64,000 nucleotides of DNA from Atractiella rhizophila (Eukaryota): positions 1 to 64,000 of the forward strand of contig MU271272.1 of the NCBI GenBank assembly GCA_021432655.1. The letters are read 5' to 3'. How positions within the stretch are numbered: the stretch's first letter is position 1; each line of letters starts with the position of its first letter. The notes beneath the pieces were generated by a model. That model worked only from the letters and a program-made list of their open reading frames with translations, did not search any database and had not been told where the DNA came from. Below are positions 31,233-57,868 of the stretch, piece by piece. The position numbers were made by a program, and so were the translations under genes.

Positions 31233-34200
31233 TCAAGGAGTACCGAACTGCATTGCTGTCGTGGTAGGTAATGGAGGAGGATATTCAGTAGCTGGGCTGG
31301 CCAGCATGTAGGTTCCGCCGCCATTGGGCAACGTTGAGACCGTCGAAACTTTTAATGTCGGCGTGCTCAGCGGCACAGAAATCGGGACTGGATTGTACTC
31401 AATCGCGATACCCTTCAACGCTGCTTCTCGCTCTTGCGATAGTCGTTGATACGCCATTCGATGGAAAGTGTTCATGGATTGTATGAACTTCCGCCCCGTC
31501 TATTGGTCACAGTACCTTTCAGCATTCAACGGAGAGTCGAAGGAAAATAACGCACGGGACTACTATTAATGTTATCAAAAAGCTCAACGAAGTTGTTACG
31601 AACGTCCTCGGCGTTGTGGAATAGACCGAATGCTAATGGTAACAACCCTCCCTGATGGGAAGGTGTCATCGACAGTAGCTAGAAGACACGTCAGTCCTGT
31701 ACTCAGACGAAGGGACGGTGCCTACCTCTGTTATTTGGTCATCAGTTCTCGTGTTCTGCGCCAGCGCTCGTGAAATGTATAACGTCTCACTTGGCGGAAG
31801 CTTCCGTCCCAATCGGATCCGCGTGAGTTGGTACCAGACATCAAAGCCTTGGATGGACTTATTCTCAAGGTATTTTGCGAAATCCTTACCGGTTCTCAAC
31901 ATGCTTCCAAAACAGGGGCAAAAAAGACTGACCTCGCGCCAGATACGATAACTCTTGGTTGCCCTCCAACCCTCTATGCGCCCGGCATTAGCTTCCACCT
32001 CCCTGCTCCATGCATTCGCTGTGCTCCCATCGGCAGTGAGAAGACCGCTCCCAAGTGTGTTCTGACCCATCACACCTCTCGACGTATACCCAATAGTCGT
32101 ATTTCCATTCTTTTCCTCCTCGTACTTTGATGCTAACCTTATAATCCTCTGAAGATATTCCGTAAACCGGGCGGCAATGACTTGCTCTCCGAAGTGAGCA
32201 GATATTGCAGTCGTGATCTCATCCATGAAAGCGGCGTCGTACGAGTCCTTCCCGGCCAGATTACCGGTTGCGCTGGGCAGAGGATTACGTCCAATATCAC
32301 CGTCGGTCGAAGAGCCATCATTCGTGGTGGAAGTGCCAGTGGGTAATGTGATATCTTTAGAGATCAGGACTTTGCCAGTATCGATGTTGAAGAGAAGATC
32401 CCATTCTGAGGTATTATATTCGAATATTGGATTCACAACGCCAGCGATGAAGCCAGGGCTGAAGCTTCTCTAAGAATCGACTGTGCAGGGTTAAGAGGGA
32501 TACGTACACATTCTTCAGATAACTTAAACTCTCAAGATTGGCATAGGGGAAACTACGCCCCGTCACCCCCTTCAAGACTGTCCCGCATCCTGAACCTAGC
32601 GCGCAAGCTGCATGTACCATGTTGGCGACTTGACCGGAGCTAGTTTGGTGACCTAAGAAAATTACCCTCTTCTCCGTAATGATAGCATTAAATAGTAGCA
32701 CGATGGGATGAGTATCACGTCCGGAAGAATGAAGGTGAGGGTGAAGCATAGGAGCAGCAGGCGGAGGGGAATTCGCGAACGTTTGTATCAGCTTGATCAA
32801 GAAGTACTATCTCGCTTCTCAGCCATGTTCCAAAGCAAACAGAGGCATAAGCGACTACGCACATCTCCAACCTCCTCATCAAATGTTGCAAGCGGTATTC
32901 GGACAGGAAGTTCAATGCCTCCAAACTTCAGCTTTGACTCAAAGACGTGGGTGTCTTTGGGTTTCTTTTGTGTCCCACTAGTCGCGGTGGCACGAGACTG
33001 GAGAATCGTAATCGGTCTTCCATTGACATGCCCGGCCTTAGAATTGCCAGTTACTGCTCTCAAAACTTCTTGCTCATCTGATTCTGACGAATGATGCGAA
33101 AGATCCGAGAGCGTTCCCACCGACGGTCTCGAGTGATGGCGGTTGATGTGCTGCACGGTAGATGAAGAATCACCGTCGGTCGAAGAGCCATCATTCGTGG
33201 TGGAAGTGCCAGTGGGTAATGTGATATCTTTAGAGATCAGGACTTTGCCAGTATCGATGTTGAAGAGAAGATCCCATTCTGAGGTATTATATTCGAATAT
33301 TGGATTCACAACGCCAGCGATGAAGCCAGGGCTGAAGCTTCTCTAAGAATCGACTGTGCAGGGTTAAGAGGGATACGTACACATTCTTCAGATAACTTAA
33401 ACTCTCAAGATTGGCATAGGGGAAACTACGCCCCGTCACCCCCTTCAAGACTGTCCCGCATCCTGAACCTAGCGCGCAAGCTGCATGTACCATGTTGGCG
33501 ACTTGACCGGAGCTAGTTTGGTGACCTAAGAAAATTACCCTCTTCTCCGTAATGATAGCATTAAATAGTAGCACGATGGGATGAGTATCCCGTCCGGAAG
33601 AATGAAGGTGAGGGTGAAGCATAGGAGCAGCAGGTGGAGGGGAATTCGCGAACGTTTGTATCAGCTTGATCAAGAAGTACTATCTCACTTCTCAGCCATG
33701 TTCCAAAGCAAACAGAGGCATGAGCGGACTACGCACATCTCCAACCTCCTCATCAAATGTTGCAAGCGGTATTCGGACCGGCAGTTCAATGCCTCCAAAC
33801 TTCAGCTTCGACTCAAAAACGTGGGTGTCTTTGGGTTTCTTCTGGGTCCCACTAGTCGCGTTGACACGAGACTGGAGAATCGTAATCGGCCTTCCATTGA
33901 CATGCCCGGCCTTAGAATTGCCAGTTACTGCTCTCAAAACTTCTTGCTCATCTGATTCTGACGAATGATGCGAAAGATCCGAGAGCGTTCCCACCGACGG
34001 TCTCGAATGATGGCGGTTGATGTGCTGCACGGTAGATGAAGAAACGAGGTCTTCTGTGAACGATGCGTCCGACGGCCGATGTTTGAATGGAGGTCGGGAA
34101 GAGGTGCTTTTCAATGAAGCCGTGAGCGAGGTTGAAGATTCTGAACGATGCATTGAGGAGCCGACATCGGCGCCGTTTCCATTTCCTCGGTATACCAGTC

Positions 34201-34933
34201 CAAGTCCAACAGCGGGACCGTAAGGCCCTTCCTCCTGCGCCGAAAACTTTTCTTCGAAGAGATCCCGACGTTCGCTGAACTTCAAGACTATTTTCTCATC
34301 CCGCGACAACTGTGGAAGGGCCGAGACATCCATGCCGTTTATCGCATTATAGAGGGAAGAGAGAACCGATATTGAAGGATTGGAGAAGTAGCTTTCGAGG
34401 GCAAGAAGTAAGATGGGCTGCTCCCTGGTCAGCTTTGCAAAGAAACGACTGGAGAGCTAACCTTCCAGATGTGGATGTAAGGGTAATATGAGCACACTGC
34501 CATGGCTTTATAATTTGCTCCTCTATCATCCCAAAATTCGCATACATCTGAAAAGCACAAAGTAGACGAACCTCTTGATATTTTGATCGGGTTTATTCCG
34601 CATCAAACTAAGGCAATACATGAGCCTGGGATCTCTTTCCCACTCCTCTTTCAAGCTATTAGGACTTTCATCTAGCCTAGAGGGGTCCGACGCCCTGAGT
34701 TGAGTGACGGAATTGAGGTAGAAAACAGTCCAATCTTCGCTTCTGTTCTGCGCTCCCTCAGGCAACATCAGCTCCGCCAGAGTTTGCTCGTTTACGCCGG
34801 TTGGACATGGAAATTGGTGCTCGAGAGTCGTGCCACGATCAACGTCGAATTCTGCGAGCAAAACGAAGGTAGCATGTTGCGTTCCGTGCTGAGGACTGCT
34901 GGAGGACATGGTCGCATCAATCGTCTCATGCAT
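31233..34933 (-). CDS. AFI1: Afi1/MesA polarity-axis protein, with an internal in-frame duplication
   Basis: FVLLAEFDVDRG, LAELMLPEGAQNRSEDWTVFYL; the SPA-domain motif HPHLHSSGRDTHPIVLLFNAIITEKRVIFLG occurs twice. The start could be 34933 or 34909. Confidence 0.82.
32296..34043. repeat. Direct tandem duplication, unit about 873 bp (32296-33169 / 33169-34043)
   Basis: Near-identical copies with scattered substitutions and a 1-nt intronic indel; one A shared at the junction (33169). Confidence 0.95.
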
Positions 34934-35020
34934 CCGTTGCTGCTGCGGAACCGCCTTTCACCTGACTTTTTTTCCGGCCGCTTAGAGACGCGTCGAAATA
35001 CATTAAATCTCCTGCGTCTC

Positions 35021-35595
35021 ATGCAAAACGACGCGATGCAAGCAGATATTCAGAGGCCCTCTCCTGAAAGCCTTACTCCGCCTCGGTATCAAAGTCCTGA
35101 CGAGAGAACGTCTCCTTCAGGCTTAGCGAGCGTGAGCAAACATCGTGTCCTCGTCAACTTGCATGAGAAGTATCAGACTTTCGACACGAACACGTTTTCA
35201 ACAAGATTCCTCACGGAAGAAGAAGAAGAAAAGGTGGCCCTTCAAGGTATGCGTTCCTCAATGCTTTCAGAAAGACGAAATAACGCAGAGGTGTTTGTGG
35301 AGGATAGAATTGATGCAAGAATTCGCTGAGCTCTGCGCCGAATTCTGCACCTGGTTCTCCGTCAGAATAGAGCAGCTGGGTGAAGAAACGTCACAAAGTT
35401 TGGAGGCTAAAGTCACGGAAGTTCAAAAACTAGAACGCGACCAGGGTTCGTTCCTTTCTGTCTCTTCTCTGTAATTGCTCAACTTAAGCGAAACTGTGGA
35501 TAGAGCAGAAACGACTGAGGATGCTCAAAGCCGTTGAGGGCATCACCAAATGCCTGAGACTTTTGCAAGAGCCTTCGATCGTCGAGCGAGCTTGA
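35021..35595 (+). CDS. Small hypothetical coiled-coil protein (3 exons)
   Basis: ATG 35021; GTATGC..TAG and GTTCGT..TAG introns join overlapping ORFs; stop at 35593-35595. Confidence 0.55.
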
Positions 35596-36077
35596 CTAGC
35601 TTCGGTAAAATGGCGGAAGGCTACCCTTTCACTTCTCTTACTTTGCGTTATCGTTCTCCTTTGCACGTACTCACCATTTTTCGTTGGTTTCTGAGTGATT
35701 CTGCTGTTGCTGTTGGGTGAGAGAAAAACTCTGCGTGGTGAGTGTGTACAACCTTTTCCGAGTATCATCAAATCAGTCATGTTATTTTATCGTGTCTTTG
35801 TGGTCGAGTAAAAGCTGAGTAGCATTCTGAATTTGAAGCTTGATGACGGGTCTTGCAAAATTTTATAAACCAAAAGGGACAAGGGGATGATGGCTCCAGT
35901 GCTGTAGTTCGTCACGTGCTACGTATTTGTCGAGAAGGGATCCTGTTTGTTTACCGTACTTATCAAAATATATTGGAATGAGGGCATTTTCTCGATCTAC
36001 CAACATCTTATACGGCATTCGCCGCGCAAAGTGAGGCGTTCCATTGCATCTCTGATGCCTCTGATGGAATGAGCAGC

Positions 36078-37632
36078 ATGTCAACATCCAAGTCGTCCAC
36101 TCCAGTGATCGATGTGCACACTCATGTGCAAGTCTTCCTCAAATCGTGTTGTCTGCTATTGATCGCTCCACCATAGGTATCTACCGCGTTACCTACAGCG
36201 CCTAAGAGCGAGAAATGTTGTCCCTAGAATTACAACCTTCCCGGATGCTCCGAACGACGAGAAGATGCTCATTTTGCCAGGGGAAGAGAAGACTGGGAAA
36301 GGACGACCTCTGACAAAGTGCGTTAAGCTCTTGCAAAAATCATTGCACTGTAGTATTGACAACACTGCAGATTTTATTGGGACAGAGACCTACGACTTCA
36401 ATGGATGGATAAGCACAATATCGACATCTCAGTAAGTTTCAGGTCAACTGGTCTGCTCCTCTAACAAGCATTGTAAAAGGTAATTAGCCTTGCGAACCCG
36501 TGGCTCGATTTCCTCTCTCCTGCTTCAGCCATCGAAGCTTCTCGCGATTTCAACAACGAGATGGAAGAGTTCTGCACATCCGTTTATGAGGACACAGGAA
36601 GGAAAAGGATATTCGGGATGGGTATTCTGCCTCTGATCCCGCTCGAGAACGAGGAAGTGGGATGTAGACGTGAGGATGGCGAAGACGAAATGAGTGTCGA
36701 CACTCTAGTGCAAGAAAACGTCAATGTCGTCGAGAGCATTGCTAGCTCGAAGTATTTAAAGGGTATGCTTCACTTCCTTGACTCTGACCGCAGTAATTGA
36801 ATTGGCGAGTAGGCATCATCCTAGGCACTCAAGGCTTTGGGAAGGGATTGGACGACTCTCGCCTAGTCCCCATCTTCCGAGCACTCGCAGACGCCAACCT
36901 TCCAATCTTCCTCGTCTGTTGCCATATTTTGTGTTTTTAAAGCTAATTACAGAGACAGCACCCCCACTACGGCCTCCCTCCTTCCCTCTTCGGATCCCTA
37001 CCAAACGGCCACGTCTTGCCTCTAGCTCTCGGTTTCCCCGTCGAGACAACCATTTCAATATCGCGCCTCCTCCTCTCAGGAATCTACGATGAACTTCCCC
37101 ACCTCAAAATCATGCTCGCACACTCCGGTGGCGTGCTACCCTATCTTAGTTCAAGATTGAACAGCTGCGTGGAACACGATCCGGTTGTGAGAGGGAGGCT
37201 GAAGCAGAAGGACGTGAGGTCGTACTTGGGGAAGTTGTATTATGATGCGGTGGCCTACGGTTCTGAAGAGTTGGAGTTCCTAGAAAAGGTCATCAAGAGG
37301 GCTGGTAGTGGAGTTTCTGACCAGGAACTGCACCCTACGGAAAGGATACTGTTTGGTGAGTTAAACTCTCACATCCTACTGAACCTAAGGAACTAACGGC
37401 TTCCTTGGCTGGAAAGGGACCGACTGCCCATTCTTTCCCCCACTCGATGCGGATCCTGTAAAGGCCGAATGGACGTCAGTCAAGGAGAACGTAAAAGCGA
37501 TATATGCCACACCCTTCAGCGCAGATCAACACAGAGCAGTAGGCGGTTTCGTCTATTCTCTTAACGTTGTCATGAACAAGGGAGCAGGTACTTGGAGGGA
37601 ACGCCATCAAATTCTTCAACTTGGATCTGTAG
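36078..37632 (+). CDS. Uracil-5-carboxylate (iso-orotate) decarboxylase, amidohydrolase family
   Basis: IDVHTHVY, ISLANPWLDF, GTQGFGKGLDD, HPHYGLP, LALGFPVETT, LAHSGG, FGTDCPFFPP. Confidence 0.85.
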
Positions 37633-38062
37633 AAGACAACCACTTTCGACTTGCAAATGGTAGTACTTGATGGTAGCATCACAGCAAGCACGTTAAAGTG
37701 TTATTGGATACTTTTCAGAATGTTGAAAACAAAGTAAACAGTTCTATAACGAAACACATCGGTGGCCAACAACGAACGATTCAAACAATGTGTCGTGAAG
37801 AGGGGAACAGATGATCAACCAATAGCTTCTGAGTCGTACCACACGCTACGTGTTTCAACTGAGAAAAAGAGAGCTTGAAGGAAGGACAGGGCCAAGTCCT
37901 AGCTGAAAAAGGATCATCAATATCAGTTCGAATAAGCATGGACCAGAAACAAACAACAAAACGAGGCACCGTGCGATACAAGACACTTACGATGACGAGA
38001 GATTACAATGATACACCGAAGGATAGAAAAACTAGAAAAACTTAATGTCGAAAACAGTGCAT

Positions 38063-40100
38063 CTATGACACAACAGAAATGATATGGATGGGTTCACCCG
38101 AATTCGCCTGCTCTTTCTCTTCCACGCTGAAACCTTCCTCATCCTCCGTATCTCCATCGTCTGTCTCGCTCCAGTGACTCTGCAAATTATACATATCATT
38201 CAGTTGGGCATTCAAACCCAGGTCGGGCAGAACAAGGTTCGGCTTTCCCATTCTCCTAGCAAAGATGGTGGTTGAAGGAGAGTCTCTCTGATCTTCTGTC
38301 CCATTGGAACTATTAACGGCGGTTACTTCCGAAGAAGCTACAGAGCTCTTGCGGTAACTATCCCGAGCTAGAGCAGAGGAAGCAGCAATCGATCCTTGGT
38401 TCGTTTCGCTCTCACTTTCGATCCCGAACGATGTCCCAAGAACTTTCGTATATCCATCCCAAGAGACCGCCCTCTCCTCCGTGTTGGGGACAACCAAGTT
38501 TCCGAAAGCAACGGAGTTGACGGAGTCAGACTCAGGAGTTTGGAAGTTTAAGACGTTTTCGATCGCCTTTTCCCCTGCTGATTTCTCTTCCTCCCCGTCC
38601 TGAGCTCCCGCCGCGTAAGACCCAACGTAGATACCATGTCGAGGGCTCTTCTGTGGACTGGAAAACAAGATTGGTTCGTCGCCTTCCTCTTCACTTCCTT
38701 CTCTGCTCATCCTTTGCCTATACGTTTCTGCGAGAGCCAAATACGAGTCTCTCTTGCTCCCCGTCGAGCTGCTGACCCTTTGAGGATAATAACTCGACGC
38801 AAGCCCTCTTCTCATTCGTGGGGTCATAGGAACAGAAGGAGGGGTCTCGTATGGCCTATTATCGTTGGGCGACTTCCAGAAGGCTAAATTCTCGGGAGTT
38901 CGCGGTGGAGAAGAGAGAGGAGAGTCTCTCGGAGGTGACGGAGGGACGTGGACTGGGACGACATTCACAGTAGGATTCCGTCTGGCCGCCAATCCCAGGG
39001 CAGGAGGACAGTTAGCTTTACGTTCTCGAAGTTTCAGGACGAAGCTGGTGTACTGCTTCCCATCCTCAGCCAATCTCTTCTCCTTCACAACTTCAAATTC
39101 ACAGTCCTCCTCCATCCCATCCTCTACTCTGAACTCAATCCCCTCCGGTCCCAAAGATTGAGTTGACCTCTCCCCGATGGGGAATAGGACTGGAGTGAAT
39201 GAGAGAGGCGATGGGGATGGCAGTGGAGATGGGAGCGTCACGGGTGACGGAGATGTCCCGTCCTGACTGGAAAAGTGCCTGCCGTTAGCCATAAAGGGAG
39301 AGGCCAATGCTTTCGCCAGAGGGATAGTGCTGAGGTTGGCGCGAGCTGATGAAGAGCGTTGGCGTGAGGAGTGACGCGGAGGAGGCATCGTCAATTTATT
39401 GCCGCGCGGTGGATTAGGAAAGGTATGCGCATTGGGGTGAGATACGCTGGAGATCTTGGAAGCCTGAGCTGGTTTCGTCTGGTCAGCACGTCCGCTTATA
39501 TGCAATTGAGGGAAAAGATTGACGGACTCCTTCTATTGAGTAACAGATCATCAGAGGAACTTGGTCTCTTTAAAAGCGGAGGTCGTCTCGTAGACTTCGG
39601 GGGTTGTTTGTAAACCCATTCGAAAGAAGCTGGCAGATCGGCATTCGATTCATGTTCCTTCTGTCTTGAACCGATGATTCGTCCGTTTTCCGACTCGCTC
39701 CTCGTCCTTTTCGACTTCGGATGGAAATTCGTCGACTACAATACAACAAGAAACTTAATTGAGCCCCACTCAAGGAGAATGGAGATGAAAGGCATACCTT
39801 AACATGATCCAACTTCTTGCTGCCAGACTCGCTGCCCAAAAGCCTGACGAGTTTAGAGCTTGAACCTTGAACATGAAACTGAGGGTTTGAAAGCTTAAGT
39901 GGAGCAGGACGAGGTTTTCCCAGCTTCTTCGGCGAGGTGGGAAGAGAAGAGAGAATTGGAGTCGACTCGAAAGGTTTGGCGTTGGAGGGGCGATTCTGAT
40001 TTGAGGCCAGTGGTTCGTCCGATTCTGTCGTTACTCTGTTTGTGGAATGGGAGATGTTGGAAGAGTTAAGGATTTGCTTGACCGCCGAGAGTGCTGTCAT
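38063..40100 (-). CDS. Hypothetical S/P-rich protein
   Basis: ORFs 39570..40100 and 38063..39505 with intervening splice signals; no recognisable domain. Confidence 0.6.
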
Positions 40101-42648
40101 ATTGAAATTATGCAGCGATGAGGAAGATTATTGGAAGAATACTACAGATTCGAAATAGTAAATAAGCGTATCGAAGAAAGGGATGAACAGATAAACATCG
40201 ATATTATAAAGCGCTGAACGAAGTTGGTGGAAGAGGGAAAGCCTGGTGAGCGTTGTCCCTACTTTTTATACAACAAAGTTCTCTAAAATGAGTGAGACCT
40301 CCCGTTGACCTTTCCCACGTCGCGTCATGCGATTCTCCAGGACGAGAAGAATGTCTCGGAACCAACCTCGCGCGTAACTTCGCGCGTCATGCATTGACCG
40401 CGACGAACTTTCAAGGGATGAAAAGACCAAGGTAATTAAGAGCGTAAGTAGGCGTGCCAACGTTTCGTTGGGCCCGTTTCTGAGAAGCTAAAATAACGAA
40501 TTGGGGAACGAGAACCACGAACACGAGATACGTAATGCCCGTTTTTATGATGAGATTAGTATCGCGTCCTCGCCTTTAGTGGTGTTAGGCTCGGGAAAAA
40601 AGGCATAGGCGGTTCTAGATGAGGCTGATCATCGATCAGCTCTCAGCCTCTCATATCAGTGGAGGAGAGCCGTGGAAACGATTGATTGAGAAACACATGT
40701 CCACAGGTGTTAAGACGCAAGAAACTGCCAAAGGTTAGCATGCTCAGTAGCATCAGAAGGACATCAATATATCAATAATCCTTTACTGTAATTGATAGTC
40801 AGTAAAGTGAGAAATACGTTCCAAGGGACATTGGGACAGATTGGGGGAATGGAGGAGCGATCAAAGCGAGCACTTCGGCTGGATATGTTTGCGCAAAGAT
40901 GAATGCTGGTTGTAAGAAACACCAGAAGAGTCACTAGATATCCAGACGGAAGGCAGCCATGGCGCGTTGAGGATTGAGAAGTTTATTAAACATCAAATGT
41001 TTCGGTCCCGGAAATGTCCTTTTTTGGAGCCGAACTTTGTCGTCAATTCAATCATTAAGTATGGAGGTCCATGTTTAGGGGCATGACAGGATAAAAATAA
41101 TATATGGTTTGCGCCATTGCCTACAGATGGACAAATGCAGTGTGTGCTCAATCTCATCTAAAATTTCACGATTCAAGTGGCTTGTCCAGCCACTGTTTGA
41201 CTACTTTTGAACGTTGTAAACTTTTGAGTAAATCAGCAACATCACTAAATCTGTGAGATATAATCAACTGCTCAGAAAACCTGGGATCTTGTTGTTCTTG
41301 TATCCTGACTTGCGTTTAGTGAGCTAGTTATTTTCGCCGCTAGGCTTATCAGCTTGCAAACTAAACATTCTGTTGTTGGGACATAGCTCACACCACTCTC
41401 ATCCGATATTCCTATCATCTGCATTTCGCACGAGATTACCTGAATCTCTGAATAAGCACTTTGAATGTGTGCTTCTTTGAAGGGATAGATTGGACTAGTA
41501 AAGGTCTTCCTGCTAATTCAAATCAAGTACTAATGAAATAATGTAGAATCTATGATTTTCGCTTTCTCGTTTAGTCTCAGACTTGTGGCATGTACCCTTT
41601 GAGCAGTAATTGCCTCTTTTTGCAGACGTTCAAGCACTAGCATGATCTTGATGCTAGCATTTGCCAAAATGTCCATTGAGGATCACGGAGACCGTAATGA
41701 GAAGGTCTCCCACGGATATCGATGGAACTTACTCAGTTCAGCGTTTGTTACCCAGGCTGTTATGATAGCGACCGGTTATCCAGACTAGATGCATCCATGG
41801 TCAACCCTGTACCTTATTCTCTTTGTCTGGTTGTGCGAATCTGTATCCGCCTTGTGCTGGGTCCTTAATGAGGTTGTAAGGGAGTTGATGTCAAAGTGAG
41901 CAGAGTTGCGGAGAACGCCACGATATCTCCTCGTCCAAAAGTTCCCATCGGTACACAATTTGGCTTTATCGAAAATAGCTGCACAAGGTGTTAAGAAAAC
42001 ATCCGATGGTAGGTGTACTTCAGACTTCTTCCTATTCATTTGGTAACAGAGAGTAAACTGCCAAAAAGGGTGATTATATAGTACTCATTTGTACGCACCG
42101 AAAAAACGGCAGCTTTGGTGCTTGACTCGATTGTTGCTCGTAAGGATCGAGGATTCAACTCATGGCCCTGTTGCCGCGCGAGTATCGGCTGCCTCTTTTT
42201 TACTGCAAAGAGTTTTAGATGGTAGACCCTTAAGCAATCGGGCGCCGGTCTCCACGGCGTGCGTTCTACGCTTGCGAGCGCAGCTACTAGGACAAGCTCA
42301 AGAAACGGAAGGTGGTCGAAAACACGTCGAATACATCGACGCTAGCAGTCTCTTTGCCTGAGTTTCAATTGACGTTTCAGAGGTGGAACCTATTCGACCT
42401 TTGATACCGTGGAAGCTCTCCACTCATACCGCGTATACTGTAGGAACATGACTTCGGTCTTGGTGTACACAGGCGGAGCGTCACAGAAGGTGAAACTCTG
42501 AGGTGTCCGACGTGCGCGGATATGGAAGAGATTGCATATAAGCAGGAACGGGATGTCGCGAAGATCCCTCATCCTTTCACTTCCTTTCTTCCACCCTCAC
42601 GTTTCCTTTTTCGATATTTAAGTTTGTCGAAGGACAAATTAGAACAAA

Positions 42649-45858: not shown

Positions 45859-46200
45859 AGTTTGACCTTCTTCGGAAGGGATGGTGATGGAAGCGGAGGA
45901 GAGGGAGGAGGGCACACATTCTCCACCGGTTGCGACGATGATACGATCAAAGATGGACGGACCTAGGAGAGGCAGTTTCTGCGTCATGAAGTACCACACC
46001 GCCGTCGCGATCGCATAAGCTCTCCCATAAGCGCTTCCTCTCAAACTAAAACCTTTAGGGTCCGTGATAGCCTTTGAAAGCACGAGAGCGATGAAAGCGG
46101 TGGTGGTCCAGAACCAAGAGAATTTGACGAGGTAAGCGTTGAATGGATTCGTCTTATCCTGCCACCACACCAATCCGAAAGGATTGTTTCGAGACGGCAG
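45859..46200 (-). pseudogene. Internal fragment of a FIT/Scs3 (fat storage-inducing transmembrane) gene
   Basis: QDKTNPFNAYLVKFSWFWTT, YAIATAVWYFMTQ..LGPSIFDRIIVATGGEC; no N-terminal transmembrane segment or C-terminal half; upstream boundary approximate. Confidence 0.7.
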
Positions 46201-46337
46201 TGGCTTTCTGTACATAGCAAACGTAATTGTTTTTGACGCTCGTTTTGATTACGTTATCTGTTTAACATTAAACATGCATCAATCACTTTCATGGTCAGAA
46301 CAATTGGCCCTCATGCTTGTGAACGCTGGCGGCACGC

Positions 46338-46548
46338 TCATTCCTCAAAAGGGCGGATGACAAGCTTGATTCCGCTCACTTCCTTCTTCTTGTATCGCTC
46401 AAGCCCATTGGATACGGCGCTAAGACCACCAGGAAGAACTTCATATCGCGCACCCTATATCTCGCATTAAATTGCTTGCGTACTTTGGCAGAGAGTACGG
46501 ACCACTAGGATTCTGTCCTTCAACAACTCTGGAAGTCGCTGTAAAGCG
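46338..46548 (-). pseudogene. 3' terminal fragment of an MDR/enoyl-reductase-like oxidoreductase gene
   Basis: LQRLPELLKDRILV | intron 46455-46502 | GARYEVLPGGLSAVSNGLERYKKKEVSGIKLVIRPFEE*, resembling the ToxD-like MDR C-terminus. Confidence 0.65.
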
Positions 46549-46775
46549 ACTCATACCGCGTATACTGTAGGAACATGACTTCGGTCTTGGTGTACACAGG
46601 CGGAACGTCACAGAAGGTGAAACTCTGAGGTGTCCGACGTGCGCGGATATGGAAGAGATTGCATATAAGCAGGAACGGGATGTCGCGAAGATCCCTCATC
46701 CTTTCACTTCCTTTCTTCCACCCTCACGTTTCCTTTTTCGATATTTAAGTTTGTCGAAGGACAAATTGAAACAAA

Positions 46776-48401: not shown

Positions 48402-48647
48402 AATGATCACTGTCAATTGCCATGTGGAGGGTTTCCTGGTTGATGCCCCAAATAAAGGAACAGCCCAGTTGTCTAGTACAATTGACGCTGAAAAGAGAGT
48501 CTTATCGAACCCTGAAAGATAGCGCTGCTGATGGTGGGACAAACAATCATGGCATAAGCATCTGCAAGAAAATAAGTCATACAACAGAACCGCATGCGAG
48601 GTGTCAGTTGCGAGAAAAGTACAAAACACAACGAGCCTGGCGACTCC

Positions 48648-51600
48648 CTATGAATCCTCCTCCTCACCCTCCGCTCCAATGTTGATTTCCTGTCCTTCCT
48701 CTTCGCCTTCATTCCCACCTCCTGGTCCTGCATTTAAGTCCTTGAAGACGCGAAGAGTGTCCAGTCCGCCCACCGTCTTGACGGTAGCGTCTTCGAGCAT
48801 CTCCTTTCTAATTGCAAGCCCTTTTTCATTCGCAAGGTGCAGCAGACAAATGAAACAAAAACTGGTGCTGATATCGGAGAGTTTCTCGGTGGGATAAACC
48901 TTCTCGATCCCAGTCATGACTTTCTTAAAGGTCTCTCCGTCTTGCTTTTTCTCTTCCGCATCCTACTCTATAGGTCAGCTTCAGCAAGAAGAGAATATGA
49001 TGAGAAATACGGCTATTAATCCCTCTTCAAGTTCTCTCCAAATTGTCTCCTTCAACTTACGCACGTCCACACGTTTAGCTCGCTTGGTGTATCTGACGGC
49101 TTCAGGTCGCACCCGCTTGAGTTGGCCTTGGGTGGCAGCGAGTAAATCATCGTCCTCTGCAACGGCCATGGGGAAATCTCCAACTTCTTCCTCGAAATCG
49201 GCAGCAAGGTCGTCCTCGTCCTCAGCGAAAAATTGCGTGTTGAAGGGCAACGCTGGCATATCTTGATCTGTGTAAAGTGGAATCACCGAGAAGTCCTGAT
49301 ATAGTGCAAAACATACCATCGCCATCTGGGACAGGATCTGGATTGGCAGCTTCTGCAGCGGCCTGTGCCCAATAGTGCTCGTCGACATCCTGTTGGTCTG
49401 CTCCATAATCAGCCTTCACCTCGCTGTCTCCGAAAACCATACCTTCTCCACCGACAGCAACACCTCCTCCGTGTCCACCTCCACCTCCACGCCGCCGCAT
49501 TGTCAACATGACCCGGGGCTTGAGAAACATTCGTAACAGATCCGTAGATGAAAAGTGCATGTCATCCGGTAACGTATAGTCTTCCTTTTTCTTCTGCCCT
49601 TTCTTCCGTTTGGGAAGCGTGATGGTTGCCTTTCCACTTGCGAACAACTCCTTCGTTGACACTTTGGCAGGCTCTGAGAAATCAATGACCTCCTTTTCTT
49701 TCGGTTGTCGCTTCCTTTTCCCTCCTGTGGAGTCGTCTGGTTGACGCATTAGTATTCATATCAATACGTGAAAAAATATACCTCTGTCACCAGCAGTCTT
49801 TTTAGCTGCAGCAATGGCGCCAATTCTTCTCATCTTCCAATGTTCAGGACCAGCCCAATTCTTGACAAGATTCCGATCAAAGTAATCGAACATGTCGGCT
49901 TCGCCATCCTCTCCATCTTTGAGCGCCAACACGAGCTCCCTCTCGTTAGGCATCCTCCTCGGATCAAATGGTTCAATTGGGCCTCCACCCCTACGAAACT
50001 CAGCAGGAGCTCCATCCATTCCTCCCTCCCCGCCATCGTCCGACCCCGGACCAGCCATATAGTCAAATTCTCCCCCCATGCCACCTCCATCGTCGAAATC
50101 ATCTCCATCCATCTCGCCAGGTTCGAAACGGCGAGTGGCATCGAAGAAATCTTGGACCGGTCCATCACCAAGTGCATCAGCGTCAGGGACCGGTGGGATT
50201 CCGTTCTCATTCTCGTCGTCACGTTGATGAGCTCCCGTTAGCCGACGGAAGAAGTTCAGGTCCATCGCGGCGTTGGAGGCTGTGAGTTTGAATTCGGAGA
50301 GGGAAGGGCAAATAAGCCGTTCACGAATCGAGGCGAGGTCGGGAAGGAATTTATCTGTTGGAGGCATCAATGGACGTGCAGTGTAAGAGAAGGCGAACAG
50401 ACCGCGAAGTTTGAAAACGTCAACGAGATCTCCCGCAGCCTCGTCTTCCTTCGTCTTTCGCGCTTCGTCGTCCATCTCGTCGTCTTCCTCGCTTACGGCA
50501 TCGCCAGCATCAAACACTACTCTAACCCGTCCATCGACTCCAAGCTAAATAGCCTCAGTCAATACTGATCCTCGAAAACAACCAAAAATGTTTACATGGT
50601 TCATGAGCAAGCCTCCTGCGCCGCCTTCATCGAAGTCCGCCGAAGTCTTCTTAAACAAAGGATCGACCTTAAATTCGAGATGCTCCTTTCCTTCTTTCAG
50701 TTTAAGTTTAGAGAAGTCATCCGCAAGCGTCGTTGTCGGTCGAACAGCCTTCCGCTTCTCTCTTTTCTGCCGGCCGTCATCTTCTGAGTCGCCACCCTCA
50801 TCTTCTCCTCCTCCTCGCCCTCCTCGGCTAGCAGGTTCTGTAGTATCCACCGCTGTGTTCAGTTTACCGAGTTCGACGACCATAGAGTCAACCCGAGATG
50901 TCCAGATCTTGACGCAGCTTCATGTACTTTATGTTAGACGTACAATATGAAGCAGGAGGGACTCACCCATCTAAGGTTGCTGATGCTTTGGCAAAGTTGA
51001 TCGAGCCGTCATTTTGACTCCGCAGAAGGGTCAAATTCCCATCTGCAAAGTAGTCGATGAGCGCAAGACTCCATGTATTGTTTGCGTTGATTTTCTAAAT
51101 CAGCATATACCATCCTTAACCCATGTCCCAGCGATTTCAAGGAAGGAAGACGCACATTGTCGGTAGCCATCTTTATCCATTCCTCATATTTCGTATTCAT
51201 AACCTCCCAGCTCACTTTTGCCGCTCCCTCGCCAAATCCTCCTCCTCCAGCAACATGTATATCATCCACGCTAACATCCTTCCTGATTCCTGCCCTCCTA
51301 AGAGCTGCAATTTTCGGTGTCCTAGGTCCAATATGTCCAGACGCCTGCCTGACAGGGGATGTAAGAGTTGGAGCAGAGACGGATTGAGCGATCGTCTGGT
51401 TGACATTGGAAAAAGAACGCTCAAGGCCTCCATGAGGCAACGAGACCCTCCCCTTCTTAAGCTGCTTCTTCCGCCTCGGCGTATCCTTGACAGACTCCTG
51501 CTCTGACCTGGACTGATCATCTTCCGAGTGGGAAGACGACAGCCGCCGCTTGCTTCCCTTTCCTTGGGGCTTCGTGACCGGGGCGCTCGAGTTTTCGCTG

Positions 51601-51653
51601 TCTGAGTCGTGCTCGATGACGGCTCGTTTGGCTGCTGCACGCTTTGGTGGCAT
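48648..51653 (-). CDS. BRN1: Condensin I kleisin subunit CAP-H (Brn1/Cnd2/barren)
   Basis: EEWIKMATDNKINANNTW.LALIDYF, NFAKASATLDGCVKIWTSRVDS, VDPLFKKTSADFDEGGA.GLL, NWAGPEHWK, KRVDVRKLK, SFCFICLLHLANEKGL. Confidence 0.95.
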
Positions 51654-51817
51654 CGCTCGTTTCGGGATGACTTCGCTCGATGCTGAATGCTTGTTTTCGA
51701 ACGCGCACCTTTCCTGTGGATCATTGCACGTGACATGTCAACCAAGCTGCATGGTTTTCATGAGGTTTGCACCAATTTTTTCTTCAGAATCTTTTGACCA
51801 GCGGCGAGAAAGAAACG

Positions 51818-53388
51818 ATGGCGCCAAAGCCTGCCAGCAGCTTGAAGCAAGGAAAGAAACGGAAGAATGAAGATATTTCCAATGGGAAGAGCGTGAAGAA
51901 AGCAAAGCTCGATGTTGGGCAGGGAGGCAAAGGTGCGAAATCAAATCAAGCTCAGGTAGAACGGCAGGTGGGAGATGAGAAGCGACTCAAAAGCATCTTG
52001 AAGAAGCCCAGCGAAGTGTCTGACACTCCCAAAGTAGCTTTAGGCAAAAGTGGGAAGAAAGAAAAGGAGTTAAAGAGGACTCCTCAGGTGGCTGCAGTCT
52101 CAGTTGCTGACAGAGATAACGCTTCCCTTCAACCCTCGACACCTTCAACGTCCATCTCTGCATTTGTGGGGACCTACGAACGGCTTCTCTACGGCGTCAA
52201 ATTTTCGTTTTCTCCCCAACCAACTCTCCAGCCAATCTTTTCCTTCCCCGCCCACCTTTCCTGTCTCAAATCCCTTTGTACAGCAAAACGAGGTCGATAT
52301 CTTCTCTCAGCCGGTACGGACGATGTTACGAAGCTATGGGACTTACGAAGGAAGAAGGAGGTTGGAATGCTTGCTGGCCTGGAGGGCACAGTAACCGACA
52401 TGGCAGAGGTGACAGAGTTAGCGAGTGTTGTCATCGCGACTGTTAACACCAGCGCATACGGAGGAGATGATAAGAAAGGAGGAACAATGTTTCTTTATCG
52501 AGAGAGGGATTGGGTGCTCTTACGGAGGTTTAAAGGACATAATTGTACGCTGTCCTCTTGTCAGCGAGAATCCATCCATAACAGGTTGTAGTGCGAACAA
52601 ATAGTATTTCGGTTCACCTAGCAGGCAGAGTTTGTCTGAGCGTCGGCGTGAGCGAGGGAAAGGATTCGCGGAAAAGGTACGAATTGAAGATGTGGGATCT
52701 GCTTGCTGGGAAAGAAGAAGGAAAATTGGGACTACATTCCGAACCCGACCTCATTCGCTTCAATGTTTCTGGCACACGCTTTGCAGTCATCTCACACTCC
52801 AACCTCACCCTGTATAGTACAGACATGCGTCCTCTCACCGAGCTCAACTCCTCTCCCAAGTCGGCTCGCTTTCATGACGTGAGGTTTTGGGAGTTTGATG
52901 GCAAGGAGAGGATGCTGGTTGCGTGTGAGGATGGGAAGGTGCGGGTGTATGATACCAGCACAGTAGTAGAGGGGCAAGAAGAGCCAGTGAAGGATGTTGC
53001 TGTCGTCAAGGGTCACTCCAACCGGTACGATGGTCCTGTATTTGCACCTTCCTCTCTGATTTTTTGTTGCGGCAGAGTGAAACGTATGGATCTCAGCTCC
53101 ATCCTACACGATGGCGAAGAAAAGATAATAATGACCACAATCTCCTCAGATGGTTGGGTTAACTTTTCGGACCTCTCCTCCCTTCGCACTTCCAGCGAAA
53201 GTGTCATTGAATTGGAACCAACTGTCAGATACGATACCAAGGGGATGAGGCTTGTTTGCCTTGCAGTGCAAGGCGTATCAAAAGAGGTGGATGCGGATAG
53301 TAGTGACGATGAGGACGGAAGTGAAAGCGAAGACGAGGACGAAGGAGCGGAAGTGGTCGAAATGTCGGAAGAGGAAACAGAGGACTAG
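51818..53388 (+). CDS. MAK11: 60S biogenesis WD40 protein Mak11/PAK1IP1
   Basis: FVGTYERLLYG, PIFSFPAH, KLWDLRRKKEVG, FKGH, GHSNRVKRM, TISSDG, YDTKGMRLVCL, acidic tail. Confidence 0.88.
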
Positions 53389-54067
53389 TGGTGGGATAAA
53401 TGATGCAATTTCATTCGCCTACACAATACCAAACATCCCTGTCACTGGTGCAGAGATGCTGCGAGCAACGATTCATAAATCATTGAGTTGGAGACGACAG
53501 AGCGCAAAGCTACAGGTCGAATGGATCGCTATTAAAAACGAATTTAGCAGGGAAGAATTAGGTAGAAAGACGGTAAGATGGAAACATTCGAAATGACTAA
53601 ATCTGATCTGTAAGTTAGAATGAATTAAATTGGTCTTTGAAAATAATGACGAAGAGATGGTTTGCTACATTGATAGCGCCAGAAGCACTAGAGTACATGG
53701 GCACATAAGCTAAAGGAAGCTAGTCCTCTGATGGGCACTGACAAATGAGCACGAAATGAGCACAGAGGTAATACATATAAATGAAATGAAATATGAAAGG
53801 GATTGAGACGATGAAGACCGGAGAAGTACAATTGGTACTTGGGAGAAACGGCCCTTTTGAAGTTATATCTGTGGAATTAAACCATCAATGGATAGCTTGT
53901 GGAGATTGGGAAGGAGTACACACGCTCAGAAATAATTCATCAAGTCGCATAACCGCCTAAGTGGATCTTCGCCATCGAACTGCTCTGAGTAGTGTGCAGC
54001 TCTGGGAGCGCAAGTTTTAACGTGATTCTTCGCGCAATTGTCAATATATTTAGAACGGAGAGTGGAT

Positions 54068-54426
54068 CTATTTGAGCACCTTGATGACTGATGGCTTCTT
54101 CGTGACGAAATTGAAGTGGCAGCCAACACATCTTTGGTGTTTCAGCCAGAAGTTGAAATCGGTATCCGGATTGATTTCAGTTCCATCGCGAAAAACATGA
54201 TAGAAGGTACTGCACACAATCGTTCATGCGAAGTGTGAATACACGTCCAACTTGAGACGGAAATAACGTACCCTGGGACGAAGGTACACATTTCGAATGG
54301 TTGTGAAGCAAAGGGATCTCCAGCGTGAATTAGATTGAAAAGTCGACTCTCCGAGACAAGCATCTGAACTTCATGAGCAAAGTAGAAAGTAACATGAGTG
54401 TCGTTGAGAACGATAACGATAGACAT
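54068..54426 (-). CDS. Small orphan protein (98 aa, 2 exons), copy 1
   Basis: GTACGT..GCAG intron joins MSIVIVLND..FVPG to TFYHVFRDG..KVLK*; the exonic differences from copy 2 that I found are all synonymous. Confidence 0.55.
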
Positions 54427-54517
54427 GATGGCTCTTGACGGCCCTGTGAACGACGATGACAAAGGCTGAAACAGTGAAAGCTCAAACTGGGACTGGACAG
54501 CAGAGCATCCTTTCCGA

Positions 54518-55261
54518 GGCGTGAGCGAGGGAAAGGATTCGCGGAAAAGGTACGAATTGAAGATGTGGGATCTGCTTGCTGGGAAAGAAGAAGGAAAATT
54601 GGGACTACATTCCGAACCCGACCTCATTCGCTTCAATGTTTCTGGCACACGCTTTGCAGTCATCTCACACTCCAACCTCACCCTGTATAGCACCGACATG
54701 CGTCCTCTCACCGAGCTCAACTCCTCTCCCAAGTCGGCTCGCTTTCATGACGTGAGGTTTTGGGAGTTTGATGGCAAGGAGAGGATGCTCGTTGCGTGTG
54801 AGGATGGGAAGGTGCGGGTGTATGACACCAGCACAGTAGTAGAGGGGCAAGAAGAGCCAGTGAAGGATGTTGCTGTCGTCAAGGGTCACTCCAACCGGTA
54901 CGATGGTCCTGTATTTGCACCTTCCTCTCTGATTTTTTGTTGCGGCAGAGTGAAACGTATGGATCTCAGCTCCATCCTACACGACGGCGAAGAAAGGATA
55001 ATAATGACCACAATCTCCTCAGATGGATGGGTTAACTTCTCGGACCTCTCCTCCCTTCGCACTTCCAGCGAAAGTATCATTGAATTGGAACCAACTGTCA
55101 GATACGATACCAAGGGGATGAGGCTTGTTTGCCTTGCAGTGCAAGGCGTATCAAAAGAGGTGGAAGCGGATAGTAGTGACGATGAGGACGGAAGTGAAAG
55201 CGAAGACGAGGACGAAGGAGCGGAAGTGGTCGAAATGTCGGAAGAGGAAGCAGAGGACTAG
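54518..55261 (+). pseudogene. 5'-truncated duplicate of MAK11
   Basis: Begins mid-exon at the duplication junction; near-identical to 52645-53388. Confidence 0.85.
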
Positions 55262-55943
55262 TGGTGGGATAAATGATGCAATTTCATTCGCCTACACAAT
55301 ACCAAACATCCCTGTCACTGGTGCAGAGATGCTGCGGGCAACGATTCGAATAAATCATTGAGTTGGAGACGACAGAGCGCAAAGCTACAGGTCGAATGGA
55401 TCGCTATTAAAAACGAATTTAGCACGGAAGAATTAGGTAGAAAGACGATATGATGGAAACATTCGAAATGATTAAATCTGAGCTGTAAGTTAGAATGAAT
55501 TAAATTGGTCTTTGAAATAATGACGAAAAGAGATGATATGCTACACTGATAGCGCCAGAAGCACTATAGTACATGGGTACATAAGCTAAAGGAAGCTAGT
55601 CCTCTGATGGGCACTGACAAATGAGCACGAAATGAGCACAGAGGTAATACATATAAATGAAATGGAATATGAAAGGGATTGAGACGATGAAGACCGGAGA
55701 AGTACAATTGGTACTGGGATAAACGGCCCTTTTGAAGTTGTATCTGTGCAATTAAACCATCAGTGGACTAGCTTGTGGAGATTGCGAAGGAGTACACACG
55801 CTCAGAAATAATTCATCAGGTCGCATAACCGCCTAAGTGGATCTTCGCCATCGAACTGCTCTGAGTAGTGTGCAGCTCTGGGAGCGCAAGTTTTAACGTG
55901 ATTCTTCACACAATTGTCAATATATTTAGAACGGAGAGTGGAT

Positions 55944-56302
55944 CTATTTGAGCACCTTGATGACAGATGGCTTCTTCGTGACGAAATTGAAGTGGCAGCC
56001 AACACATCTTTGGTGTTTCAGCCAGAAGTTGAAATCCGTGTCCGGATTGATTTCAGTTCCATCGCGAAAAACATGATAGAAGGTACTGCACACATTCGTT
56101 CATGCGAAGTGTGAATACACGTCCAACTTGCGACGGAAATAACGTACCCAGGGACGAAGGTACACATTTCGAATGGTTGTGAAGCAAAGGGATCTCCAGC
56201 GTGAATTAGATTGAAAAGTCGACTCTCCGAGACAAGCATCTGAACTTCATGAGCAAAGTAGAAAGTAACATGAGTGTCGTTGAGAACGATAACGATAGAC
56301 AT
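55944..56302 (-). CDS. Small orphan protein (98 aa, 2 exons), copy 2
   Basis: ATG at 56302, intron 56086-56147, TAG at 55944; the spliced length is 297 nt. Confidence 0.6.
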
Positions 56303-57868
56303 GATGGCTCTTGACGGCCCTGTGAACGACGATGACAAAGGCTGAAACAGTGAAAGCTCAAACTGGGACTGGACAGCAGAGCATCCTTTCCGCTTCCTTT
56401 TAAGCCGCTGCTCTCTCCCATAATTGGATCGTGGGTAGTATTTTGGAACCCCAAAAGCAATGGTGGCTCAAGGAGTGTGCACATATACCATGATCGACCG
56501 ATAGGCTCAGTAGTGAATCGACTTCGAAGCAAACGGTCTGAAGACAAGACGCCAGCACAGAGGAGTGCTCGACAGCCTGTTCAAATTGTGATTTGCCGGT
56601 AGGTCGGGGGAAAAATTTCTTTCATCGGGGCAGAGGACAGTCAACAAGGGTTTGCAGCAAGGTGCACTACGCGATCAGAGCTGCAAACAAACGAAAGCAC
56701 GGCCGATAACTAGGCCGATCATCTCAATTCTGCGGCAATCGCAAATTGTTTTGAATTCGGAGCTTCGATAGACGTTCAATACACTCGATGAAGAATGCAT
56801 TCAGCCTCACATTGAGTTGAAAACCCGCTGAAGTTAGAGCTATCCGGCCGCCGCGAAGGCGGAAAGATTGATGAAGACATCAAAGTTCCTGGATTTTTCG
56901 TAAAACTACCTGTGGCCTCAGGAGTCTGCAAACTATTGGCAGAAGGTCTTTCTTCTGTCTCTCGTGACCTCCTGAGCTCAATTTTGAGCATGAGCGGTAA
57001 TTGGGAGCAGGGACGAAGACAGGGTTTACATCGTTACATTAATTAGAGAGGATGGGGAACCCTCGCCTGCAAGCAGCTGCAAGAGAAATGGAGGTGACAA
57101 AGGGAGGACAAAGGGACGGGTGCAGTTCGCAAAGTCTTTGTCCCCGTCAATGGGTCATGAATAGAGAACCAGAACCAGGAAGGAGATACGCTCAAACAAC
57201 TTAGGCTAACTAAGCTCGTCGATTGCGGCGGGTAAATATTGATGAAATGGAGAACAGTCACCCAAAACCTAAGGATAAATATTTTCATGTCACCCACGAT
57301 GCGCGACTCCAGCTCAATACGGGAGCTCATCGAGTCGATAAGAACCCGAGAACAGCACATGCATAGTAAGGATGAGCTAGTTCTGCGTACTCCCCATTCA
57401 GTGCGGCAATTCGTTCAGCTTCCGCCGGGACAACTTCGATCGCTCTCTTCTGTTCCAGAACACTTCTAACACAAGACGAGCTGGGAAAGAATCACGGAAC
57501 CCACACATCGTGAGACTGTCGGTCCCTCACCTGTCTCATATCTCAAAGACGACCCAAACCTCAAGCCGACACAAGAGGTTCTGACAAGCGACTCACTCTT
57601 TACTGCCTATCCCCAATCCATGTCCTTTGTAGCGCCATTGCAATGACATCAACAACATTTCAGGGCACTTTCTGAAGCTGAATCGTATGGAATTGTTGAA
57701 AAGACAACAAGGAAAGCAAATATTGGCCTCCGTCGCAATGACTTGATGACACCTGCTTCACACAGGTCAAGTCACGTTCTTTCCCATGGCACCGGAACAA
57801 TCCCGCCCACTTTGTAGTTATCTATATCTTGTTGTCTTAAAACTTCTAACATTTTATCGAGCCTTGGA

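Follow-up and report, generated by a model that had tools for sequence, protein, structure and literature searches.

In BRCA1- or CDK12-deficient tumours, the "tandem duplicator phenotype" consists of tandem duplications that arise through non-homologous or polymerase-theta end joining; their copies derive from sister chromatids and start out identical. In yeast, genomic fragments are captured at repaired double-strand breaks. Duplications may also belong to the assembled record: Kelley and Salzberg (2010; PMC2864568) treat the placement of haplotype contigs at adjacent locations as a known assembly error, and Ko et al. (2022; PMC9516828) report false duplications that are sometimes connected through sequence without read support, inserted by erroneous gap filling.

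The three direct duplications found in the window, i.e., the whole 64,000-nt stretch of Atractiella rhizophila DNA that was analysed, share traits with each of these systems. Like the tumour duplications, they show head-to-tail copies, junctions with 0–1 nt of microhomology and now and then an extra base, and breakpoints placed without regard to genes; unlike them, the copies are ~2% apart in an allele-like manner, and their junctions appear in no listed run contig. The chain of short pieces from distant loci at a blunt junction (S1, 341 nt; S', 348 nt) is reminiscent of fragment capture in yeast, but is known here from the assembly record alone. In turn, the copies are adjacent, 96–99% alike and separated by haplotype-type SNPs and small indels, and they cut genes and would create false exon or gene gains, as described for false heterotype duplications, or "duplicated overlapping contigs", in both assembly papers (PMC2864568, PMC9516828). 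Haplotype-specific differences between copies, one of the marks named by Ko et al. (2022), are present; an assembly gap (N) between the pair, another mark, is absent (0 N), and instead the joins are blunt or carry at most one filler base. Their further marks are a join that lacks read support in place of the gap, about half the read depth on each copy, and discordant read pairs or linked reads across the pair. We consider that the three duplications most likely do not represent a new way of duplicating DNA, and estimate at roughly 0.8 the probability that they are false heterotype duplications, a data fault in which two haplotypes were set in series by the assembly.

Anatomy of the repeat pairs

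Self-BLAST of the whole window at E<1e-10 recovered exactly three repeat pairs, in agreement with the number and positions reported in the earlier note: 32296–33169 and 33169–34043 (duplication 1; 98.29% identity over 875 columns), 42422–45858 and 46549–49979 (duplication 2; 98.40% over 3442 columns), and 52645–54516 and 54518–56392 (duplication 3; 97.66% over 1877 columns), an identity range of 97.7–98.4%. The view that flanking repeats and transposon ends are lacking also holds, as the same search at E<1e-10 gave no further direct repeats or inverted repeats in the 64 kb and homology at the breakpoints is ≤1 nt in all three duplications. The window holds 0 N bases, and the joins are gapless. 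The head-to-tail arrangement is correct for duplications 1 and 3, but not for duplication 2, the copies of which lie 690 nt apart (45859–46548, a sequence unique within the window). Breakpoints do cut across gene boundaries as claimed, severing an SPA-domain gene, a Cnd2 gene and a WD40 gene.

Duplication 1 is located inside the minus-strand SPA-domain gene, where Pfam PF08616 matched the ORFs 31666–32469(-) and 32797–33342(-). Its copies (32296–33168, 873 nt, and 33169–34043, 875 nt) meet at 33168/33169 with one shared nucleotide, the A at 33169, that is, with a 1-nt overlap. The minus-strand ORF continues in frame through this junction, which would happen by chance in 1/3 of cases, yet would be expected of a real event that was tolerated and counts against an assembly artefact. 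A protein search with the ORF spanning the junction gave 1 distant protein (43% identity), none derived from Logan and none from the organism itself.

Copy A1 of duplication 2 (42422–45858) is contiguous with the left flank and carries a complete AA14 LPMO gene (+) followed by the 3' half of the condensin gene Cnd2 (-), cut at 45858. Copy A2 (46549–49979) repeats the AA14 gene (+) and the Cnd2 3' half (-) and is contiguous with the right flank, where Cnd2 is whole (Pfam profile 91–763 over 48651–51094). When the Cnd2 ORF was searched against proteins, including longer ones, 6 were found and 0 of them came from Atractiella rhizophila. In duplication 3, copy c1 (52645–54516) contains the last two exons of the WD40 gene (+; CDS end at 53391, intron 53025–53075) and a small 128-codon gene (-; 53926–54426) severed from its upstream region. 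Copy c2 (54518–56392) comprises a WD40 3' fragment without its 5' part (54518–55264) and the small gene (55802–56302) with its natural upstream flank retained. Over their final 242 nt, c1 and c2 do not differ.

The spacer between A1 and A2 has an additional breakpoint, 46200/46201, which the earlier note had missed. S1 (45860–46200, 341 nt, minus strand), cut bluntly at both ends, comes from the interior of a FIT (PF10261) gene with a single exon: it corresponds to residues 104–216 of the 345-aa FIT protein P0002, with 110/113 residues identical, and the intact gene for P0002 is encoded on a different contig of the Atractiella rhizophila assembly. S1 differs from the FIT alleles, namely by 3/341 nt from a run contig and by 3/113 residues from P0002. 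The second piece, S' (46201–46548, 348 nt), has no Pfam hit and a source locus beyond the window; it is covered in DNA runs and nearly missing from RNA. The near-equal sizes of S1 and S' would fit library fragments or single reads too.

As to the A reported at each junction, the signature is weak as a pattern. The sole clearly untemplated A is that at 54517, between c1 and c2, which is supplied by neither parent context, the natural neighbour being C on either side. The join at 46548/46549 is blunt, and the A at 46549 simply opens the repeated unit, as it also does at 42422, directly after the left flank; that at 33169 represents the overlap mentioned above. The single A at 45859 sits between A1 and the FIT fragment, either as filler or as the fragment's own first base; within the FIT fragment this is a third codon position, at which run contigs carry C or G, and the A may belong to the fragment. 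There is no A at 46200/46201, and A makes up 26% of the bases of the window. That a single N was turned into A as junction filler stays a guess, given that 46200/46201 lacks a filler and that the window format can hold N.

Allele-like differences between the copies

The three pairs together show 90 substitutions (54 transitions, 36 transversions) and 25 gap columns, which amounts to a divergence of about 1.1–2.0% by substitutions and 1.6–2.3% with indels. The substitutions go in all directions, and no excess of C-to-T/G-to-A changes indicative of RIP was seen between the copies. Our codon comparison covered four modelled gene parts, i.e., the SPA gene, the Cnd2 3' half, the WD40 tail and the small gene, which in total hold 30 synonymous versus 8 non-synonymous codon differences; all 25 gap columns (25/25) fall outside these coding parts. 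The copies of duplication 1 are set apart by 14 substitutions, with 10 synonymous and 2 non-synonymous codons, and its intron has 2 substitutions and 1 indel. For the Cnd2 3' half we counted 8 synonymous and 2 non-synonymous codons (both I/V), for the WD40 tail 7:4 and for the small gene 5:0. Even in the parts that would be dead fragments (Cnd2 half, WD40 tail and the promoter-less small gene), only 6/26 codon differences are non-synonymous, compared with a share of ~0.6 assumed had one copy drifted freely since duplication (binomial P = 1.4e-4). This scarcity indicates that the differences arose in working genes, i.e., as alleles, and supports the earlier statement that the copies differ in an allele-like way, transversions included.

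Breakpoint contexts in public run contigs

Duplications 2 and 3 were compared with the Logan contigs of four runs, X1, X2, X3 and X5 (the latter covering 9/30 bins), among the pieces listed; runs X4 and X6–X13, with shares of 0.05–0.10, were left out. Such contigs show presence, not absence, their depth is not a copy number, and X1 and X2 may not derive from the assembled isolate. We found that at 45860, 46200, 46548/46549 and 54516 listed contigs run on into other sequence (presence only, and for X1/X2 perhaps in another isolate). All four tested breakpoints continue into ordinary single-copy context in the listed contigs of the four runs. None of these pieces spans a novel join, with contigs being a sign of presence rather than proof of absence; 174 further pieces fall outside the listing, and a collinear contig over such a join would not have stood out.

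Loose contig ends occur at 45860 in X1, X2, X3 and X5, and at 46200 in X1, X2 and X3; by hand translation, the overhangs beyond the ends of S1 encode P0002 residues 94–103 and 217–226. At the right end of S', two contigs of X1, two of X2 and one of X3 extend past 46548 into sequence absent from the window. A search of the window for 20-nt words taken from the loose ends, allowing ≤3 mismatches, gave 0 matches for each, and thus the source loci of S1 and S' lie outside the 64 kb. The spacer is not the natural neighbour of the duplication 2 copies. Instead, in an X2 contig the end of the left flank leads into the beginning of the unit (28/30 letters of the contig's loose end before 46549 equal window 42392–42421), and 452-nt contigs of X1 (record 4) and X2 (record 12) bridge 49979/49980.

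For duplication 3, X1 and X2 each contain a 2726-nt DNA contig that covers 53910–54516 and then proceeds, unbranched, with the letters from window position 56393 onward. It differs from c1 at 9 sites, the exact count of c1/c2 differences over that range, and so looks identical to the window's haplotype of c2 plus flank, which consequently seems to occur in the X1/X2 sample. In de Bruijn contigs, a shared repeat end with two continuations forces a branch. Since the last 242 nt of the copies are identical, a genome with the c1-A-c2 join would have to show such a branch where the repeat stops, but the 2726-nt contig passes this point in both runs.

X1 and X2 come from the same sample and have retained different alleles at several places, e.g., at 45859 and 50635–50668; this sample is heterozygous. 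At 6/6 of the listed sites that distinguish A1 from A2 and at which the runs depart from A2, their contigs have the A1 letter, and one contig with A1 letters proceeds into the ordinary right flank. Of the 23 listed differences between run contigs and A2, 17 fall where A1 equals A2, and therefore three haplotype-like sequences exist at unit A, with A1 being the most divergent. The depth of the first bin in X1 (45659–45960), 62.3, equals 186.2 x 101/302, the share of the lone FIT contig starting at 45860; thus nothing aligned on the A1 tail, though such holes prove nothing. Relative to the single-copy stretch 49887–52604, mean bin depth was 0.91 (X1) and 0.98 (X2) for A2, and 0.97 (X1) and 1.21 (X2) for c1, contig depth again not being a copy number. 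There is no twofold excess in this relative contig depth, but individual bins range from 0.6x to 1.75x. Neither the end of repeat 3 nor that of unit A gave any locus (0 each) in exact-pattern scans of metagenome contigs.

Origin of the duplications and its consequences

False heterotype duplications would arise here if the Atractiella rhizophila isolate carries two diverged haplotypes and the assembly strung their overlapping pieces end to end instead of merging them. The record would then be a chain of blocks, running up to 33168, from 33169 to 45858, through two small foreign pieces, from 46549 to 54516, and from 54518 onward. Each block would begin 0.87–3.4 kb before the stop point of the previous one, so that the overlap appears in two versions, one for each haplotype, and the join is blunt or contains a single filler base. 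As for the 690-nt spacer, it would be a wrong fill, composed of the 341-nt slice from the FIT gene of another locus and the 348-nt piece from elsewhere, which fits the read-unsupported joining sequence from wrong gap filling described by Ko et al. (2022; PMC9516828). The novel joins would accordingly be expected to be absent from the DNA of the organism. Two further points count against an artefact, namely that the N gap, its usual signature, is missing between the copies, and that a two-haplotype model needs A1 and A2 each to be a fine-scale mosaic. Random ligation chimeras of the library could explain the spacer pieces, but not three overlaps of the same locus and orientation within 24 kb.

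The earlier note had left the choice between such an artefact and a real tandem-duplicator process; the run contigs and the foreign spacer favour the former, and we found no positive evidence for the latter. We regard it as unlikely that real, recent duplications joined both haplotypes through homology-free end joining in a diploid stage, with capture of two ~345-nt fragments. The junctions are blunt, overlap by 1 nt or carry 1 added base, as end joining would leave them, and both the microhomology and the small untemplated addition expected of end-joined tandem duplications are found. Copies that differ as alleles, three haplotype-like sequences at unit A, the fact that each duplication leaves every gene one whole copy or keeps the reading frame, and the known capture of foreign fragments at repaired breaks in yeast would all suit such an event. 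However, it would require the homologues to have been joined without homology at three separate places within 24 kb, with a switch of haplotype each time, in a fungus whose two haplotypes may sit in separate nuclei, and the FIT slice, differing from other FIT alleles, would need the "other" haplotype as its source as well. It also conflicts with the 2726-nt contigs of X1 and X2, which cross the end of repeat 3 unbranched even though the sample holds the window's haplotype, and with the failure of any listed run contig to cross a novel join. The more specific scenario of an end-joining burst between homologues in an early-diverging basidiomycete, with three allele-pairing tandem duplications within 24 kb and two captures of ~345 nt (roughly dinucleosome-sized), appears quite improbable. 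Real joins would reveal a natural "tandem duplicator" state in which standing heterozygosity is turned into chimeric genes and exon duplications that keep the frame, and a rare natural case of homologue-to-homologue end joining, though nothing found points there.

Real but old duplications, with ~2% divergence accumulated since their origin and the cut gene fragments decaying as pseudogenes, are very improbable. The 1.6–2.3% divergence of all three pairs and the position of A1 as the most divergent of the unit-A sequences would agree with them; yet the would-be dead fragments show 6/26 non-synonymous differences and no coding indel, and duplications older than the allelic split would be expected in every haplotype, whereas the listed contigs give single-copy contexts only. 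An origin from a transposon, from unequal crossing-over between flanking repeats or from RIP-mutated repeats is next to negligible, as nothing in the window supports it: beyond the three pairs, self-BLAST at E<1e-10 gave neither direct nor inverted repeats, homology at the breakpoints is ≤1 nt, and the copies show no excess of C-to-T/G-to-A changes. Neither terminal repeats nor a target-site duplication nor flanking homology was found.

If the duplications are false, as we prefer to read them, their value is that of a data warning: the public assembly would write overlapping haplotype pieces in tandem, and the record would contain a spurious second copy of the AA14 LPMO gene, a Cnd2-FIT chimera that does not exist, an artificial internal repeat of 291 codons in the SPA-domain gene and a spurious additional WD40 fragment. 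Counts of genes, surveys of "young duplicates" and searches for chimeric genes in the Atractiella rhizophila genome would be misled. Genome data of Atractiella are termed unpublished in the acknowledgement of PMC13347111, and for this species, with its genome paper pending, the copies could serve as phased allele pairs that show strong purifying selection.

Repeat pairs and the genes that they cover

Comparison of the window with itself (threshold E<1e-10) yielded three repeat pairs only, all in direct orientation: duplication 1 (32296-33169 and 33169-34043; 98.29% identity over 875 columns), duplication 2 (A1, 42422-45858, and A2, 46549-49979; 98.40% over 3442 columns) and duplication 3 (c1, 52645-54516, and c2, 54518-56392; 97.66% over 1877 columns). 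In this order, the pairs show 14, 39 and 37 substitutions and 2, 16 and 7 gap columns between their copies, and no N letters occur in the 64 kb. The earlier note, which described three duplications of such sizes with blunt ends, was mostly right, as both the self-comparison and the junction letters place them in the record. Its description of the middle one as head-to-tail does not hold, since a 690-nt spacer (45859-46548), single-copy in the window, separates A1 from A2.

The locus is fungal and intron-rich, as judged from Pfam matches on stop-to-stop ORFs and from splice sites in RNA contigs, on which our gene assignments are based. The gene that contains duplication 1 is on the minus strand and encodes an SPA domain (PF08616); its ORF passes the junction in frame, copy 1 being 873 nt long, a multiple of three; a protein search with the ORF crossing this junction returned no relevant match. 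By Pfam, the duplication 2 unit contains an AA14 LPMO gene on the plus strand and, on the minus strand, the 3′ half of the gene for the condensin subunit Cnd2. Only A2 together with the adjoining right flank holds a whole Cnd2 (48651-51094; Pfam profile 91-763), and the A1 version is cut at 45858. The duplication 3 unit includes the last two exons of a plus-strand WD40 gene (stop at 53391, intron 53025-53075) and a minus-strand gene of 128 codons (53926-54426), the upstream region of which lies beyond the repeat end.

We also noted several features of these genes and of the window. The AA14 LPMO gene (46571-48961; copy at 42444-44839) has many short introns of 45-52 nt, with seven clean GT..AG joints in the RNA run X3, and ends tail to tail with Cnd2; as a 2079-nt X3 contig (record 17) spans the 3′ ends of both, their transcripts may overlap. 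In X5, a spliced contig (record 24; 53416-54478) shows minus-strand introns at 53869-53923, 54028-54079 and 54210-54271, the first of which would belong to the 3′ UTR of the 128-codon gene, given its modelled stop at 53926. A search for longer proteins with the Cnd2 ORF (49759-51094) returned six condensin proteins, none from Atractiella rhizophila and none assigned to the window itself. A complete Cnd2 model may be missing here from public annotation, possibly because of the duplicated half. The G+C content is 0.54-0.57 at 16001-20000 versus 0.44-0.53 elsewhere, and GC skew is negative there.

Junctions and spacer in the contigs of public runs

Of the 13 public sequencing runs matched, four (X1, X2, X3 and X5) were compared as Logan contigs over 45659-54717, which takes in all three duplication 2 junctions and that of duplication 3. 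X1 and X2 derive from one sample (shares 0.72 and 0.70) and behave as DNA, with 30/30 bins covered and depth at none of the 15 joints listed. X3 (share 0.46) is RNA, all 15 joints listed being intron-like X3 joints, and X5 (share 0.09) is likewise spliced. The loose ends listed (18 of 21) cluster at the breakpoints 45860, 46200, 46548/46549 and 54516, and each reads into ordinary context, contigs being informative of presence and not of absence.

The spacer proved to be composite, another breakpoint lying at 46200|46201, which the earlier note does not list. Its ORF belongs to the FIT family (PF10261, Pfam), and the best relative of this fragment is the hypothetical protein BT69DRAFT_1299187 of A. 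rhizophila. The translation matches residues 104-216 of P0002, a 345-aa FIT protein of this species, at 110/113 positions, residue 104 falling at 46200 (tblastn); the P0002 gene is located elsewhere, on a contig 70,499 nt long. FIT sequence extends beyond 46200 in contigs of X1, X2 and X3 and before 45860 in contigs of X1, X2, X3 and X5. Hand translation of the overhangs, both taken in reverse complement, gives VANLLVPPDK for one, identical to P0002 residues 94-103, and TSTSVLDPHH for the other, against TSTSILDPHH at 217-226. The P0002 match and the overhangs past both ends thus mark 45860-46200 as a blunt-cut slice of 341 nt taken from the interior of a single exon. The remaining 348-nt piece (46201-46548) has no Pfam match, is covered in the DNA runs and hardly in RNA, and continues rightward into non-window sequence in two contigs of X1, two of X2 and one of X3 (255 nt). 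In the record, the order at duplication 2 is left flank, A1, an A, the FIT slice, the 348-nt piece, A2 and right flank. Yet, in an X2 contig the end of the left flank (28/30 letters matching 42392-42421) directly precedes the start of the unit, which, together with the overhangs of the spacer pieces, indicates that the natural order is flank, unit, flank.

The proposal that an A marks each junction fails on inspection of the letters. At 33169 the A is a 1-nt overlap between the copies of duplication 1, and at 46549 it is the first base of the duplication 2 unit itself. In the frame of the FIT slice, 45859 is a third codon position; X1 reads C there and X2 reads G, and A would keep Thr. Only the extra A at 54517 is cleanly untemplated, without a source in either parent context (the natural neighbours are C on both sides), and the junction at 46200|46201 has no A. 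Given these mixed origins, and with A making up 26% of the window, we do not regard the junction A as a signature.

X1 and X2 each contain a contig of 2726 nt that passes beyond 54516 into the letters of window position 56393 onward. Over 53910-54516 the 2726-nt contig differs from c1 at 9 positions, and c1 differs from c2 there at exactly 9, so that the sample appears to carry the c2-plus-flank haplotype of the window. Contigs of a 31-mer graph should stop at a branch, and a c1|A|c2 join in the genome would create one at the repeat end, since c1 and c2 share their final 242 nt without a difference; the 2726-nt contigs of X1 and X2 cross that end, in a sample that may differ from the assembled isolate. 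Exact patterns for the ends of repeat 3 and of unit A found no loci in metagenome contigs.

Differences between the copies

In the four gene parts classified (by ORF frames, Pfam-matched stretches and RNA-supported introns, the AA14 gene being left out), 30 codons differ synonymously and 8 non-synonymously: 10 and 2 in the SPA gene, 8 and 2 (both I/V) in the Cnd2 3′ half, 7 and 4 (K/R, V/I, D/E, T/A) in the WD40 tail, and 5 and 0 in the 128-codon gene. These parts contain no coding indels, and the SPA gene intron adds two substitutions and one indel. In duplication 3, 16 differences fall in 1083 nt of coding sequence versus 28 in the remaining 789 nt. The synonymous excess and the lack of coding indels imply that the differences arose in working genes. 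They bear out the earlier view that the copies differ as alleles would, and fit either two haplotypes or a very recent real event joining two haplotypes. No RIP-type bias was observed among the differences of the three pairs.

The sample behind X1 and X2 is itself heterozygous, as the two runs keep different letters at several places, including 45859 and 50635-50668, and X1 holds both alleles at 51549 (131.7 of 220.5). Relative to A2, the run contigs show at least 23 differences (among the 40 of 171 places listed for the whole stretch); six of these 23 fall at sites variable between A1 and A2, all six carrying the A1 letter, and 17 fall where A1 and A2 agree. A1-type letters are present at the ordinary locus, as an X1 contig (record 4) carries A1 letters and extends into the usual right flank. 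Three haplotype-like sequences therefore exist at unit A, and if the isolate has only two haplotypes, A1 and A2 must be fine-scale mosaics, as would result from independently resolved bubbles or mixed polishing.

Origin of the repeats

We consider false heterotype duplication the best explanation (probability about 0.8): overlapping blocks of two haplotypes (ending at 33168; 33169-45858; 46549-54516; from 54518) would have been joined end to end where they should have been collapsed, with two foreign pieces of read size filling the join between A1 and A2. Most probably, then, the arrangement does not represent a biological feature. Of the two readings offered earlier, this favours the assembly artefact, the real tandem-duplicator process having gained no positive read support from the run contigs listed. 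False heterotype duplication is a well-documented class of error (PMC2864568, PMC9516828), its marks including half depth, gaps, discordant pairs and haplotype-specific k-mers (Ko et al., PMC9516828). As in those cases, the copies here carry allelic differences; in contrast, no N gap separates the copies. The contigs listed over 45659-54717 suggest that the joins there may be read-unsupported. We found no published assembly method for the Atractiella genome in the literature searched; a 2026 paper acknowledges "unpublished genome data for Atractiella" (PMC13347111).

A real and recent joining of ends between homologues would account for the junction anatomy and for the allelic differences, yet it is unlikely: within 24 kb the haplotype would have to switch three times, an allele-like FIT slice would have to be captured as well, and the contigs listed for the four runs over 45659-54717 give it no positive support. 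Were the duplications instead real and old, then in three of the gene parts one of the two copies would be a dead fragment, and in these parts 6 of 26 codon differences are non-synonymous; with free drift of one copy assumed to give about 0.6 non-synonymous, the binomial P is 1.4e-4 (0.018 at 0.45), and this selection pattern makes old duplications very improbable. Least credible of all is an origin by transposon, flanking repeats or RIP: the self-comparison, with its three pairs only, and the junction letters contradict the former two, and the 54 transitions versus 36 transversions summed over the three pairs contradict RIP.
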